This document shows, piece by piece, positions 1,285 to 8,189 of a stretch of 11,577 bases of DNA. A model generated the notes under the pieces. It did not search any database and was not told where the DNA came from. It saw only the letters and a program-made list of their open reading frames with translations. The stretch comes from a virus. Taxonomy: Duplodnaviria > Heunggongvirae > Uroviricota > Caudoviricetes. Position 1 is the first letter of the stretch, and each line of letters starts with the position of its first letter. The stretch spans positions 1-11,577 of IMG/VR virus record IMGVR_UViG_3300018477_000015; one strand, given 5' to 3'. The position numbers and the translations under genes were made by a program.

Positions 1285-1932
1285 CTATGAAGCTAATTTG
1301 TTTAATTTCATTTGTAGTGACTTTACTTCTTGGTCGATAATGTCGAATCCCTTATTGACAGCATCTCTTAGCTCTGCATCAATATTTTTTATCCCTTGAG
1401 CATAATCTACCATTACATTTATTTTTGCATCATGTAATCTCTTATACATGGTTTTATCTTTGTTATTGTCTGCCATGCCAATAAGGATTTTTTCATAATC
1501 CTCAATGAGTTTGTTGTTTCCTTTAAATGATTGTATTAATGAGCGTGAATATGTGTATATGTTAATTATTGAGTCTCTAGCAGAATCATTTAGTTTTGCA
1601 ATGACATTCGCATTTTTCTCATAGAATGTGAAATTATCATCCCCTACAGGGAATGTGAGAATCAACATTTGTCCCGGTTTTATATTATCAATGTGTGTTT
1701 TCATCCTTTTATTATATAAATTGATTAGGGTGAAAACTTCTCCCTTAACTCCTTTTAATACTGAAAGTTGTAATTCAAGGGATTCTCTTTCTGTCTCTAC
1801 TTTAGACAGCTTAGCTTGTTGGGTAACTCCTTTTAGGGTAAACCATCCGCCAATAAGAGTACCAACTAGAGCTGTGAGGGAGGAGGATAACCATCCAGGT
1901 ATGCTATTTAAAAGATTACTAAATTCACTCAT
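1285..1932 (-). CDS. hypothetical membrane-anchored protein (single N-terminal TM helix, then coiled-coil and globular region); AT-rich accessory gene
   Basis: 215-aa ORF. Residues about 10-32 (IPGWLSSSLTALVGTLIGGWFTL) are hydrophobic, followed by a charged heptad-like stretch. Low GC compared with flanking phage genes. No family recognised. Confidence 0.6.
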   Translation of the reverse strand: MSEFSNLLNSIPGWLSSSLTALVGTLIGGWFTLKGVTQQAKLSKVETERESLELQLSVLKGVKGEVFTLINLYNKRMKTHIDNIKPGQMLILTFPVGDDNFTFYEKNANVIAKLNDSARDSIINIYTYSRSLIQSFKGNNKLIEDYEKILIGMADNNKDKTMYKRLHDAKINVMVDYAQGIKNIDAELRDAVNKGFDIIDQEVKSLQMKLNKLAS

Positions 1933-1990: not shown

Positions 1991-2269
1991 CTACTGGAGA
2001 AGGCTACCTGAACTTCGATCTATTCCTGCATCCATATAGTTGATGGTCTTCTGGAGCTCTTCGATTAGGGCAACAGCTTTTGCTCGAGAAATGCATATTA
2101 GTTGATCCGGAAATTCTTGTAAGGGCCAGTTTGGTATACAGGCCATGTTATCAGTGAAGGATGCAGACAAGTAAACTTCATTGGTAACCAGAGAATAGCT
2201 TACCTCAAAATTGGTGAGTTCCGGCAAACTGCTAACGTTTGACTCTTTTCTGCGCATAATATTATCCAT
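1991..2269 (-). CDS. hypothetical small protein; start uncertain (ATG at 2269 giving about 92 aa, or upstream ATG at 2419 giving 142 aa)
   Basis: Open frame in the AT-rich island. The N-terminal 50 residues of the long form are Cys/Trp-rich and contain the C9T6 tract, so the shorter form is favoured. No clear SD for either start. Confidence 0.35.
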   Translation of the reverse strand: MDNIMRRKESNVSSLPELTNFEVSYSLVTNEVYLSASFTDNMACIPNWPLQEFPDQLICISRAKAVALIEELQKTINYMDAGIDRSSGSLLQ

Positions 2270-2346
2270 GACTGTAATTATGTACAGGTGATGGTCTTCA
2301 ATTTCGAAGAGGGAGTCAAGGGGGAGTCTCAAATGAACCGTTATAG

Positions 2347-2361
2347 AAAAAAGGGGGGGGG
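2347..2361. repeat. homopolymeric tract A6G9 (C9T6 on the minus strand)
   Basis: Direct reading: aaaaaa at 2347-2352, ggggggggg at 2353-2361. Confidence 0.9.
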
Positions 2362-2409
2362 ATCTTTGTGTTGCTGAACTTATGCAAAATTTTTTTGCAC
2401 CATAAATCC

Positions 2410-2670
2410 AACAACACATTCAATAACACATTGCTGTATCACTATGAAAATAAATGTGTTTTTATTTGATTTCACACATATCACAATTAATACAGCGTTT
2501 AGTAATTAGTAAAGACATTTCAATGAATTACCGTTAAATCATTTTAAAATCAGTAAGTTGTATCGAGTTTGTATGCTTTACTGTCATTAACTTACTGTAT
2601 GTTGATCCAGTGTATTTAACCTTGATAAACTCAGTCCAGCAACACAAAACCGCAACACATTGCATTTTGT
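2410..2670. promoter_or_regulatory. AT-rich integrase-upstream region with repeated short motifs; candidate attP arm-site or int regulatory region
   Basis: AACACATT at 2413-2420, 2425-2432 and 2654-2661, with an inverted copy at 2453-2460. A 9-bp perfect inverted repeat CAGTAAGTT/AACTTACTG at 2551-2559 and 2589-2597. Repeated TTGTAT and TTACTGT motifs. Confidence 0.3.
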
Positions 2671-2732: not shown

Positions 2733-4130
2733 ATGCCGCGCACTGTAACACATAATCCGGATAGCCCCAATAATGACGATGTTTTAGCCGCATCTGAAAA
2801 ATGGGACGCCTGTAAACCCCCCTATACCAGCGCACACATGAAAATCTGTGTTGCTGCCGCCAAAATCATCCTCGCTGCTTCCGGCGTGGCTCGCCGTTCC
2901 AAATACGAAAAAGAGAACTATCTCCGTATCGATTTCAGCAAAGCCGGTAAGGTTACATTTTACGCCGAGTTTCCAAAAAAGATGGGCCTCAAAGGTAAAA
3001 AGCTCGGCGAGTGGCCGGAGCTCGCTATTCAGCTGGCGCGCGAAAAAGCGCTAGGTATGGCTGACGGTGGCCTGCGTGCAGAGTCCGTACATGCAGCGCT
3101 GGAAATGTACCGGGATGACCTCAAAGCCAAAGTCGCCCGGCAGAAGCTGAGCCCGGACAGTTTCACAACCTACGGGGTGCGTATCGACCGGATTAAAGCA
3201 ACGTTCGGCGAGCGCGAGGTGTTCAGCGACGTAACATACAATCGGCTGGTGGAAGTGCTGGACGAGTGGATCGCTACTCGCTCGAACAATAACGCCCTGG
3301 AGTTGTTTGCCGAGCTCCGTCGGTTCTGGAAGTTCTGCGCACCTACTCTTTGCAACGGCCGCAATGTTGCCGCCAGTCTGCCAGATGATTATGTTTCCTC
3401 CCGCGTACAGAAACCTACCCCCACACGGCTTTTTACCGATATTGAATCAATCGCCCGACTCTGGCTCAATGTTGCTGCCTGCACCTCTGTACACCAGAAG
3501 AATGCTGTTCGCTTCATGATCATCACTGGTGTTCGTCCGATTAATGTCCATAACCTGCGCTGGGACTACGTTCACGAGGAGGCTGGTGAAATTGTTTATC
3601 CGGAAGGGGTTATCGGCATGCGAGGGGCTATGAAAACACAAAAGGCTTTCCGCCTGCCGATAACCCCTGAGATCCGGCGGATTATCGACGAGCAGAAAGC
3701 CTGGCGTGATTCAGTTCCTGAGTGCAACAGGGATTATGTATTTTTGCAGCCACGTGATCCAATGCAGCCATTTTCAAAACGATCACTAGATAAGCTGGTG
3801 AAAACATACAGCCCGGACGGGGCTGTAAAAGGAATAAAACATGATGGGACTGTTAAAGGGAAAGACGGTGCATTTAATACGATGTGCCGTAAATTCCTTA
3901 AGAGCAATGTTATTGCCTTGATGAAGGAAAGAGGCTATTCCCGCTCAGACCGAAGGGAAATCAGCCTCCTTTGCCTTCACCACTCCAGCAAGTCAGATGA
4001 CCCGATGGCAGAACATTACGACTTTTCTGATGAGATTTTACAGGAAGAGATTGCGTTGAAGCGCGAAGCTTTCGAGGCTCACGAGCGGAGCATACTTGCG
4101 CAGGTGGCATTGCTACGGCGGCGAGGTTAA
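2733..4130 (+). CDS. int: tyrosine-type site-specific integrase (P4-like, with N-terminal arm-binding-type domain)
   Basis: 465 aa from ATG 2733, with AAGGA 6 nt upstream; the track's 2727 start is a TTG. The N-terminus (YLRIDFSKAGKVTFYAEF...LGEWPELAIQLAREKA) fits the P4-int arm-binding pattern. The catalytic-domain landmarks are TGVRPINV (Arg), HDGTVKG and CLHHSS...AEHY (His/Tyr region). Confidence 0.85.
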   Translation: MPRTVTHNPDSPNNDDVLAASEKWDACKPPYTSAHMKICVAAAKIILAASGVARRSKYEKENYLRIDFSKAGKVTFYAEFPKKMGLKGKKLGEWPELAIQLAREKALGMADGGLRAESVHAALEMYRDDLKAKVARQKLSPDSFTTYGVRIDRIKATFGEREVFSDVTYNRLVEVLDEWIATRSNNNALELFAELRRFWKFCAPTLCNGRNVAASLPDDYVSSRVQKPTPTRLFTDIESIARLWLNVAACTSVHQKNAVRFMIITGVRPINVHNLRWDYVHEEAGEIVYPEGVIGMRGAMKTQKAFRLPITPEIRRIIDEQKAWRDSVPECNRDYVFLQPRDPMQPFSKRSLDKLVKTYSPDGAVKGIKHDGTVKGKDGAFNTMCRKFLKSNVIALMKERGYSRSDRREISLLCLHHSSKSDDPMAEHYDFSDEILQEEIALKREAFEAHERSILAQVALLRRRG

Positions 4131-5780: not shown

Positions 5781-6698
5781 TTATAATAGTGCTGTTACTA
5801 TTGCATCTTTAAAAATATTTTCTTCTTCATTTATTAAAGGTGATGACAGATGAATAATTACTTCTTTTCCTGTCAATACTATTTGCTCGACTTGAAATCC
5901 TGCGTTGTGTAGTCTTTGGCGTAACTTTTCTAGTGCTGATTTTGATATACTAAATCCTTCACTCCTTATAGTATAACTGGCAACTCCATTTTTAATAATA
6001 TCTACAGAGTTGTCAATTTCCTGCTGCGAGTAATTTTTCGGTGAGTCGAAAAATCTGGATTTTGTCGTTGCTGTTGCCCTAAGAGATATCAATAATGATT
6101 TGATATCTTTAATCTCAGATGCCAGATACTCAGTTTCTGATACTTCTTTCTGGTCTAGTTGTGCAACTTTGAAAGTGCCAAAATGTTTGAGGAATGTTGT
6201 GTATTCAGGATCAGTTACTGACTTTAAATATGTTTCTTTTATCTTGCTCGCAAGTCTTTCTTTGAATAAATTGATTGATTGGTATCTTAAATCCGAAGGG
6301 TACTCTAAATGTTCAATTGATGAAATGTCAAAGCTATAAGGAGTGCGCTCGTCCTTAATAATTACGGTCGGTTTGTCAAATGCGAGACGCATTCCTAATT
6401 CAAACATTACATTAGCGTTTCGAGCACTTATATCGCAAACAACTATGGGGTTTTCATAAAGATTTTGAACAATTCGTTTTTGTATTACTGCAACATCATC
6501 ATCTGAACTTACCAAATTTGCCTTGAATCCGGCATCATTTGATGCTTCACAAATAATGTCATGAACATTTCTCCAATGTCCAGTGGGATAACCTTCTATG
6601 TCCGCAATTGGCATAATAATGCCGCATATATGAGGTGGCATATTTTTGTTGTCTTTTACATCATCTTGGTTTATTTCTTTCGTTTGTTGCTTAGCCAT
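5781..6698 (-). CDS. hypothetical protein with N-terminal TIR-like / nucleoside 2-deoxyribosyltransferase-like (Rossmannoid) domain and uncharacterised C-terminal domain; AT-rich insertion
   Basis: 305 aa. N-terminal region has ICGIIMPIA, then DDDVAVIQKRIVQNLYENPIVVCDISARNANVMFELGMRLAFDKPTVIIKDE and EYPSDLRY. The FE(L)G acidic motif after a buried strand is typical of TIR-like (PF10137-type) and NDT-like folds as I recall them. GC content is clearly lower than in the flanking helicase and VRR-NUC genes. Confidence 0.5.
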   Translation of the reverse strand: MAKQQTKEINQDDVKDNKNMPPHICGIIMPIADIEGYPTGHWRNVHDIICEASNDAGFKANLVSSDDDVAVIQKRIVQNLYENPIVVCDISARNANVMFELGMRLAFDKPTVIIKDERTPYSFDISSIEHLEYPSDLRYQSINLFKERLASKIKETYLKSVTDPEYTTFLKHFGTFKVAQLDQKEVSETEYLASEIKDIKSLLISLRATATTKSRFFDSPKNYSQQEIDNSVDIIKNGVASYTIRSEGFSISKSALEKLRQRLHNAGFQVEQIVLTGKEVIIHLSSPLINEEENIFKDAIVTALL

Positions 6699-7427: not shown

Positions 7428-8189
7428 TTACGAGGAAGCGTTAGCTATTTGAGCTTGTGTAAATTCGAAACCAGAATTTTGTAACCGTTGCACTAGACGA
7501 GGAACTGTTTCACGTACATGGTCGTTGAAATTCAGATACAAAATCCCGTTAGCATCAGAAGGCTGTTCTAGGTGCTGTTTCTGAAGGATTGCTACATTGC
7601 TGCGCCCTAAGGACGAAAGAAGCATACCCATCTCGAGTACAACGTTCTGTCTTGCGCGGGGTTGGATTTCTGCTTCACCGGCGCGCTTTGAGTATCCCAT
7701 ATCATCAGGTGTCAAAAGAACAATCCCGAAACGGGTAGCAGTTTGTCCTTGCCCAATTTCACGTTCAAGCTCTTCAATAATGGTGAGTCCAGTCCCTCCC
7801 GTATTCTGCAAAATGAAATGGTCTGGTAATCCAAGTTTATGAAGGATTAGCTCAAGTTGTTCCTTTGCAGTATGGTCATGGCCGTGAACAATGAATATCT
7901 TTTTGGGAAGCTCAGATGGCTGTTCTACGGCTAGTGGTGTTGCCGTGGGGGGCGTTCCTAAATGGGACATTATTGCAGTTTCAACATTGGGACGTTCTTG
8001 AGGGTTACCTTGAAACTGAATGGTCCGGGTGGTGTAAAGGTTAACAATTACGCCATTCGTTAAACGATAGCAGTCATAAGTCTCACGCTGTTCGTGGGAA
8101 AAATTGGTGAACCCACACTCCCTCAAAAAGTCAGGAAAAGATTCTCTCGGGTATGGATAGGTGATCGGCATTTCAGTTAGTTCCTGCAT
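7428..8189 (-). CDS. TIR-like domain protein (C-terminal TIR-like/NDT-like Rossmannoid domain, uncharacterised N-terminal domain of about 95 aa)
   Basis: 253 aa. C-terminal half has KIFIVHGHD, then FGIVLLTPDDMG...PRARQNVVLEMGMLLSSLGRSNVAILQK and QPSDANGILYLNF, the same motif order as the 305-aa protein and matching my recollection of the PF10137-type TIR-like family. AGGA about 10 nt upstream of ATG 8189. Followed by its own terminator. Confidence 0.55.
   Translation of the reverse strand: MQELTEMPITYPYPRESFPDFLRECGFTNFSHEQRETYDCYRLTNGVIVNLYTTRTIQFQGNPQERPNVETAIMSHLGTPPTATPLAVEQPSELPKKIFIVHGHDHTAKEQLELILHKLGLPDHFILQNTGGTGLTIIEELEREIGQGQTATRFGIVLLTPDDMGYSKRAGEAEIQPRARQNVVLEMGMLLSSLGRSNVAILQKQHLEQPSDANGILYLNFNDHVRETVPRLVQRLQNSGFEFTQAQIANASS

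Follow-up and report, generated by a model that had tools for sequence, protein, structure and literature searches.

The homopolymer pair A6G9 (AAAAAAGGGGGGGGG) at positions 2347–2361 of the phage DNA analysed here, an 11,577-nt stretch referred to as the window (IMG/VR record IMGVR_UViG_3300018477_000015, Caudoviricetes), is a length-polymorphic, non-coding tract, and is most likely an ordinary slippage-prone repeat, not a genetic switch, lying outside any gene or core promoter. It is probably a nearly neutral, hypermutable spacer between the arm of a phage attachment (att) site and an SOS promoter.

The A run occupies 2347–2352 and the G run 2353–2361, as read from the sequence and as the original prediction had stated, and the ATC that directly follows the nine Gs creates a GATC at 2361–2364. 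Its minus-strand form is C9T6, which lies within a mechanically called 142-aa open reading frame (ORF; 1991–2419) and there encodes S-P-P-L-F-S. It is the only G/C run longer than six nucleotides in the window, and a first-order Markov model gives 0.03 expected runs of nine or more in 11.6 kb, in agreement with the claim that nine consecutive Gs are rare by chance; at least two G8 matches arose in 7 of 200 dinucleotide shuffles of the window, and for a single window the rarity of the tract is unusual, not extreme. Even G.C runs of 8 bp are termed outliers and indel hot spots in E. coli K-12, and the indel rate in E. coli increases exponentially as runs lengthen (PMC8510543).

The GATC adjoining the tract is absent from two loci (L015 and L028) and hence not conserved, and control through Dam was rejected. 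The plus strand carries a 14-codon ORF across the tract (MNRYRKKGGGSLCC and a stop; 2334–2378), which is almost certainly meaningless. The A6G junction forms the classic slippery heptamer A AAA AAG, restricted to the A6 allele; programmed −1 frameshifting at this site was rejected, the 14-codon ORF being the sole plus-strand frame across it.

Length variation of the tract among related prophages

Twenty-seven sequences were compared: the window, 16 loci from complete E. coli genomes picked to cover the range of match lengths, and nine metagenome contigs and one IMG/VR contig retrieved with a flank pattern. Together they carry 14 distinct alleles, ranging over A3–6 and G3–10, with both runs variable. 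The uninterrupted alleles are A6G9 (the window), A5G10, A5G8, A5G7, A5G6, A4G8, A4G7, A3G8, A3G7, A3G6 and A3G5, and other lineages carry interrupted forms (A3G4AG5, A3G5AGG, A3G4AGC and A3G3TTG). For six alleles (A6G9, A5G10, A5G8, A4G8, A4G7 and A5G6) the flanks show no difference at all across 477 nt, and the tract therefore changes far faster than point substitution. The original prediction had proposed a slippage-prone tract, to be checked for G-tract heterogeneity in related genomes; in that comparison the A run and the G run each differ strongly in length, as a hypermutable simple repeat whose length is polymorphic among related strains would.

A6G9 itself is seen again in 10 independent short-read contigs (ENA, Logan and JGI samples), which were found through the exact 142-aa product and so show recurrence, not frequency; four of them contain the attP junction and six a bacterial attR junction. 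Illumina-type metagenome contigs independently carry A5G8, A4G8, A4G7 and A3G7, so the variation is not merely long-read homopolymer error. Among isolates, one shared span is found in about ten that come from different hosts and countries, O103:H2 and O45:H2 strains among them, one in four RIVM isolates and two HG9948xx records, and likewise one in three BH100 substrains. Identical spans in same-lineage isolates argue, indirectly, against very high switching rates, although consensus assemblies hide minority variants. A scan of GTDB representative genomes found no copy, nor did the literature searched yield anything relevant on phase variation through poly-G tracts in prophages of E. coli.

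Several other homopolymers were seen in these loci. A second variable run, T7 at 2391–2397 within a TGCAAAA/TTTTGCA palindrome, is T5C or T6C in loci L009, L011 and L014, altering spurious ORF extensions (KKF, KKKF or KKIL). A C11 run lies approximately 1.1 kb from the tract in L023 (1919–1929), and a G8 run approximately 3.2 kb upstream of it in L021 (4178–4185). A CCCAAG7-8AAACGG run is found in L017 (1556–1562), L020 (2248–2254) and L025 (8885–8892), its G7 or G8 length varying by contig.

The attachment region and the LexA-boxed gene

The window was first read as two tandem prophages, a reading dropped on comparison with strain Rb-50, in which a single prophage at yfhL, of roughly 42 kb, has the int-SNF2-TIR-DNA polymerase block at its left end and the pin-215aa-88aa block, with the tract, at its right end; these ends correspond to the two halves of the window. 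The left part of the window (pin, then the 215-aa and small ORFs on the minus strand) matches the right end of a prophage beside yfhH in 77 complete E. coli genomes, and the right part (integrase, SNF2 helicase, VRR-NUC, TIR protein, family-A DNA polymerase and DUF2815) matches other E. coli prophage DNA. An 18-bp core, TTCACACATATCACAATT (2471–2488), is the only block common to attP (the window), attL (locus L053) and attR (locus L001), from which it follows that the window spans an intact attP, derived from either an excised or circular phage form or a tandem copy. Integration occurs at the 5' end of yfhL, a locus already known for prophage insertion. As the phage supplies its own surrogate for the start of yfhL (2462–2518, minus strand; MSLLITKRCI and the core-encoded NCDMCE, then IK and a stop), integration restores this ferredoxin-like host gene at attL; at attR, the native yfhL promoter and first 16 codons read into the prophage arm. 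The other attP arm adjoins a 465-aa tyrosine integrase gene (2733–4130, plus strand; PF00589), and the same integrase is found at the left end of the Rb-50 prophage.

A 10–12-nt motif, (C)AGCAACACA(A/T), is present in seven copies, in both orientations and on both sides of the core. An inverted, outermost copy of (C)AGCAACACAAA at 2365–2380 lies 3 nt (ATC) from the tract and is 94% complementary to 2633–2648; further copies are located at 2407–2418, 2419–2430, 2453–2463 (inverted), 2635–2646, 2649–2660 and 2742–2753. These copies are putative integrase arm-type sites, with 2365–2380 the outermost on the arm distal to int, and the shared core, repeated motifs and adjoining int together point to a tyrosine-integrase attP arm.

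Opposed arm-type motifs and the inner TGCAAAA/TTTTGCA palindrome make up a 52-nt inverted repeat (2367–2418), which as minus-strand RNA has a dG of −24.4 kcal/mol (z −4.2), with the tract unpaired and outside the stem. Comparison by eye of the window with L015 showed no compensatory changes for such an RNA hairpin, and an Rfam search gave a meaningless mir-581 match alone (E = 0.69). An intrinsic terminator was rejected, as the 2418–2367 hairpin is A/U-rich and the U6 lies 15 nt past the stem; no terminator-like site was found in 1200–2800.

Two records described as 'complete phage genomes', vB_EcoM-611R5 and vB_EcoM-606R2 (L026 and L027; ON470588.1 and ON470579.1), carry host genes (yfhH, yfhb and tadA) at one end, and are thus prophage cut-outs, not packaged genomes, and useless as sources of attP.

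On the opposite side of the tract from the arm-type site lies the predicted promoter of an 88-aa gene (2291–2319, minus strand), comprising a −35 TTGACT (2319–2314), a 17-nt spacer and a weak −10 GACCAT (2296–2291), an 8/12 match; the predicted LexA-repressed transcription start is near 2284 on the minus strand. When the regions upstream of the gene in the window and in a divergent E. coli locus were aligned with those of Salmonella, Citrobacter and Salmonella phage SEN34, the TTGACT proved invariant across four lineages, followed by a 15–18-nt spacer and a weak −10. A LexA (SOS) box, CTGT-N8-ACAG (CTGTAATTATGTACAG; 2272–2287), is found just upstream of the gene and is the sole match in the window, with 0.13 expected; it occupies the same position in the Salmonella and Citrobacter homologues, SEN34 having one mismatch (CTGT-N8-CCAG). 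Promoter activity and LexA control of the 88-aa gene are deduced here from conservation, and the box, conserved among homologues, is that expected of a LexA-regulated promoter; the conserved module of TTGACT and LexA box suggests an SOS-induced small phage gene, possibly antirepressor-like. Upstream of TTGACT the sequence is unalignable between genera, because different att modules are joined there. An 11-nt tandem direct repeat (2307–2328; AAGAGGGAGTC and AAGGGGGAGTC) overlaps the −35 hexamer, and its G5 run is G4 in L009, L011–L014 and L018.

The original prediction had proposed that changes in tract length could switch expression of the small gene on and off. The conserved −35/−10 and LexA box of the gene itself lie downstream of the tract, which is 27 nt upstream of the −35, at approximately −63 to −77; no hexamer pair of at least 8/12 overlaps or spans the tract in any of the 11 alleles scanned, and sets of clonal isolates share one length, all of which speaks against the switch. 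A consensus promoter scan likewise found no promoter across the tract, and we know of no activator site upstream of the 88-aa promoter; the tract was rejected as a −35/−10 spacer, and neither this position nor one between a known activator site and a promoter is what it occupies. A TATAAC adjoining the tract is without the conserved final T, and the one −35 hexamer it could pair with is GCAACA, a 3/6 match, available only at tract totals of 8–10 (by eye).

The gene itself (phrog_17793; 1991–2257, minus strand) is the true extent of what had been described as a small accessory ORF. The 88-aa form is the one given by PGAP, products of the homologous genes from Salmonella, Citrobacter and SEN34 have 87–88 aa (one from Escherichia sp. 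has 90 aa and one from Citrobacter 92), and the Met matching 2257 is the start in 24/24 aligned homologues; SEN34_31 shares 81% amino acid identity with the 88-aa product. The start codon therefore lies 89 nt downstream of the tract. The ATG at 2269, which the original prediction offered as an alternative start, is missing from three E. coli loci (L012, L013 and L015). The gene is restricted to E. coli, Salmonella and Citrobacter phages of this type and always adjoins the att site. What separates it from pin varies: nothing intervenes in Citrobacter, SEN34 has an acetyltransferase there, and E. coli has either the 215-aa protein or one of 281 aa. AlphaFold models the product as three strands and a long helix (pLDDT 75), for which Foldseek found no match in the PDB at E ≤ 0.001.

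Downstream of the 88-aa gene is that of a 215-aa accessory protein (1285–1932, minus strand), membrane-anchored and all-helical, which is widespread in Enterobacterales (Dickeya, Yersinia, Serratia, Providencia, Proteus, Klebsiella and Enterobacter). In Enterobacter it stands alone beside higBA (L038–L042, 4001–4657). Its AlphaFold model is helical, again with no PDB match by Foldseek at E ≤ 0.001. Neither small gene has a match in Pfam, PADLOC or NCBIfam, and the sole PHROG match for the pair is to a function-unknown family; the 215-aa protein may be an exclusion or defence gene. The two had been taken as one cassette, but each occurs elsewhere without the other and they are therefore not one unit.

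In the left part of the window, a Pin-type DNA invertase (614–1204) sits beside a minus-strand 127-aa ORF (240–623) that matches tail-fibre and virion-structural PHROG families. By analogy with e14, Mu and P1, this arrangement suggests an invertible host-range segment; several of the E. coli copies have a frameshift or truncation in pin. Two minus-strand genes of the early region (5781–6698 and 7428–8189) resemble defence cargo, namely a low-GC (33–35%) 305-aa protein with a weak TIR match, and a 253-aa TIR-domain protein that matches the PADLOC candidate system PDC-S35 at 1e-108. The Rb-50 phage copy has an extra SIR2 gene between the DNA polymerase and DUF2815.

Origin of the tract and alternative explanations

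The linker containing the tract is approximately 45 bp long, bounded on one side by the putative arm-type site (2365–2380) and on the other by the inferred LexA-controlled promoter (−35 at 2314–2319), and the tract would be a slippage-prone mononucleotide repeat in this functionally unconstrained part of the attP region of a temperate phage. Prophages with different cargo at the same site (L016, L028 and L029) have the att arm in common only from roughly the position of the tract inward, and the tract takes short forms there (AAAGGGTTG, AAAGGGGGAGG and AAAGGGGAGC), so that the tract appears to mark the outer edge of the conserved arm. An ancestral AAAGGGGGA at this edge would have grown by replication slippage to A4–6 G6–10 in one prophage clade, G5 to G8 probably arising in other clades too, and point mutations would later have interrupted the run in some lineages, the interrupted forms representing decay. 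Length changes leave every reading frame, the −35/−10 spacer and the arm-repeat spacing unaltered, from which we infer that tract lengths drift nearly neutrally. Change would be much faster than substitution, yet slow enough for one allele per clonal lineage, which would fit a mismatch-repair-proficient host, and not a classical contingency locus.

This explanation of the tract as a near-neutral spacer draws support from the A6G9 phage itself, which forms attP junctions in four independent contigs, making the long allele compatible with excision. The TTGACT/LexA module lies downstream of the tract, with unrelated sequence upstream between genera; none of 11 alleles has a promoter-like hexamer pair across the tract, and same-lineage isolates share one span. 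Against it, neutrality is deduced from position and pattern; G8–G10 runs are otherwise very rare in E. coli, and selection could be why they have lasted in many strains; with a putative Int site directly beside it and a predicted transcription start no more than ~80 nt away, the tract could have a modest influence through spacing or DNA shape; and it adds to a C-rich, G-poor stretch of the minus strand that could matter for Rho.

As it stands, the significance of the tract is little. It provides a clean natural case of homopolymer growth from G5 to G10, followed by decay, in non-coding phage DNA, and of more use are two side results, the mapped attP (core, arm repeats and yfhL surrogate) and the conserved LexA-boxed small gene. 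The tract would matter more if its length tuned the adjoining SOS gene, which may bear on prophage induction.

Modulatory roles through spacing, Rho loading or att function together have perhaps a minority chance of being correct. The first would be a rheostat, in which tract length sets the distance or helical phase between the Int arm site or intasome (2365 onward) and the 88-aa promoter, tuning, and not switching, basal or induced expression of the 88-aa gene and of the downstream 215-aa gene. The tract is suitably placed for this, 3 nt from the putative Int site and 27 nt from the −35 hexamer, and the observed alleles span 7 bp, approximately two-thirds of a helical turn; Bordetella fim genes, reportedly controlled by poly-C tracts between activator site and core promoter, would offer a precedent by analogy. 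Such tuning is nevertheless rather unlikely, since the homologous inferred promoters in Salmonella, Citrobacter and SEN34 have wholly unrelated upstream DNA, the tract was short ancestrally, and interrupted alleles survive.

A heritable tuning knob in the wider sense, the tract either resetting the spacing of arm site and LexA promoter or, as poly-C RNA, boosting Rho loading on yfhL read-through, is doubtful. If true, tract length would set expression of the 88-aa SOS gene, possibly an antirepressor-like inducer, and of the 215-aa membrane protein, and E. coli lineages would differ in prophage inducibility or accessory-gene dosage. It would also be a rare case of SSR-based regulation in a mismatch-repair-proficient enterobacterium, such regulation being, to our knowledge, nearly unknown in E. 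coli.

Rho could also act on its own, with C9U6 and the C-rich stretch after it forming a loading site (rut) or insulator that recruits Rho and shields the SOS gene from read-through, longer C runs strengthening the shielding. By its orientation, the host yfhH-yfhL' transcript at attR would read on the minus strand into the prophage arm, truncated YfhL' stopping at 2462, and in attP the surrogate yfhL 5' end (an 18-codon ORF, stop 2462) would read in the same way; 78-nt minus-strand windows over 2283–2380 reach a C/G of 3.1, above the 99th percentile of the window, and the tract is unpaired beside a stable hairpin. The case is nonetheless one of composition, with the tract itself inflating the C/G ratio; there is no intrinsic terminator, the U run lying 15 nt from the stem, and ancestral C5 and interrupted alleles would serve nearly as well, all of which makes a rut improbable.

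It is still more doubtful that the tract forms part of the functional attP arm, its length affecting the efficiency of integration or excision. The short A3G4–5 motif is the outer edge of an arm conserved among prophages with different cargo, and the tract is 109 bp from the core, as far out as arm sites of lambda are found. The tract is, however, outside the outermost repeat, so that inter-site spacing is unchanged; A6G9 phages still give attP junctions, and the motif is substituted in L015, L016 and L028.

A coding role is very improbable. The original prediction had offered a place for the tract within the 142-aa frame, and its S-P-P-L reading is correct, but the N-terminal extension that contains the tract (2258–2419, minus strand) is spurious, non-coding and unconserved. 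Translational phase variation would have tract length toggle the ATG at 2419 in and out of frame, a 142-aa isoform being made by in-frame alleles only, and the frame is indeed open from 2419 where total tract length is a multiple of three. Total lengths of 8, 9, 10, 11, 12, 13 and 15 show no preference for multiples of three; no Salmonella, Citrobacter or SEN34 homologue has the extension, which is rewritten in six loci by a further 1-nt indel at 2320–2324 and closed by a stop codon in L015. The ATG at 2419 is within an arm-type repeat, without a Shine-Dalgarno sequence. Gene callers extend all three frames equally, giving versions of 113–159 aa depending on tract length, and a practical warning follows, as these frame-dependent extensions from automated callers, 'proteins' of 140–159 aa, pollute protein databases. 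The other option left by the original prediction, a sequencing or assembly artefact in the window, is hardly credible: homopolymers are error-prone on some platforms, and some long-read allele calls from complete genomes may be off by one, but identical A6G9 in 10 independent short-read contigs rejects it for that allele, and the other lengths seen independently in Illumina-type contigs also count against it.

Comparison with known systems

The attachment region resembles lambda-type attP in having a repeated 10–12-nt motif, in both orientations, flanking an 18-bp core beside a tyrosine integrase gene. It differs in that the motif copies here are putative sites, with the tract outside the outermost repeat, on the int-distal arm.

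The 88-aa gene is small and phage-borne, like the LexA-controlled genes encoding Tum of phage 186 and AntC of N15. GfoA and GftA of the Gifsy phages and FsoA of Fels-1 are LexA-controlled phage antirepressors (PMC3121763). All of these, and the 88-aa gene, have a LexA box overlapping the promoter, conserved in the case of the 88-aa gene. The likeness to Tum and GfoA appears to be one of regulation only, as the 88-aa product has no sequence or fold similarity that was found to characterised antirepressors, and unlike their genes, it is encoded adjoining attP and not immunity or replication genes.

A further comparison is with promoter contingency loci. In Neisseria, poly-G tracts lie between the −35 and −10 of porA and opc, and in Bordetella pertussis poly-C tracts lie between the BvgA site and the −10 of fim2 and fim3. 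The tract shares with these a G/C homopolymer of at least 8–10 nucleotides, a length polymorphic among strains, and a position upstream of a gene, here one of a mobile or accessory element. It differs from them in lying outside the −35/−10 spacer with no known activator site upstream, in a mismatch-repair-proficient host whose clonal isolates share one allele, and in having a short ancestral state and interrupted alleles that persist.

The tract also resembles the mononucleotide-run hot spots of E. coli, such as the 8-bp G.C runs in the leuP/Q/V/T tRNA genes, known from mutation-accumulation work of the Foster laboratory (PMC8510543), where indels likewise far outpace substitutions; in both cases replication slippage is limited by MutSLH mismatch repair. 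Unlike those hot spots, the tract sits in non-coding phage DNA and consists of an A run and an adjoining G run that both vary, and its non-coding position means that indels are tolerated and build up as standing polymorphism between lineages.
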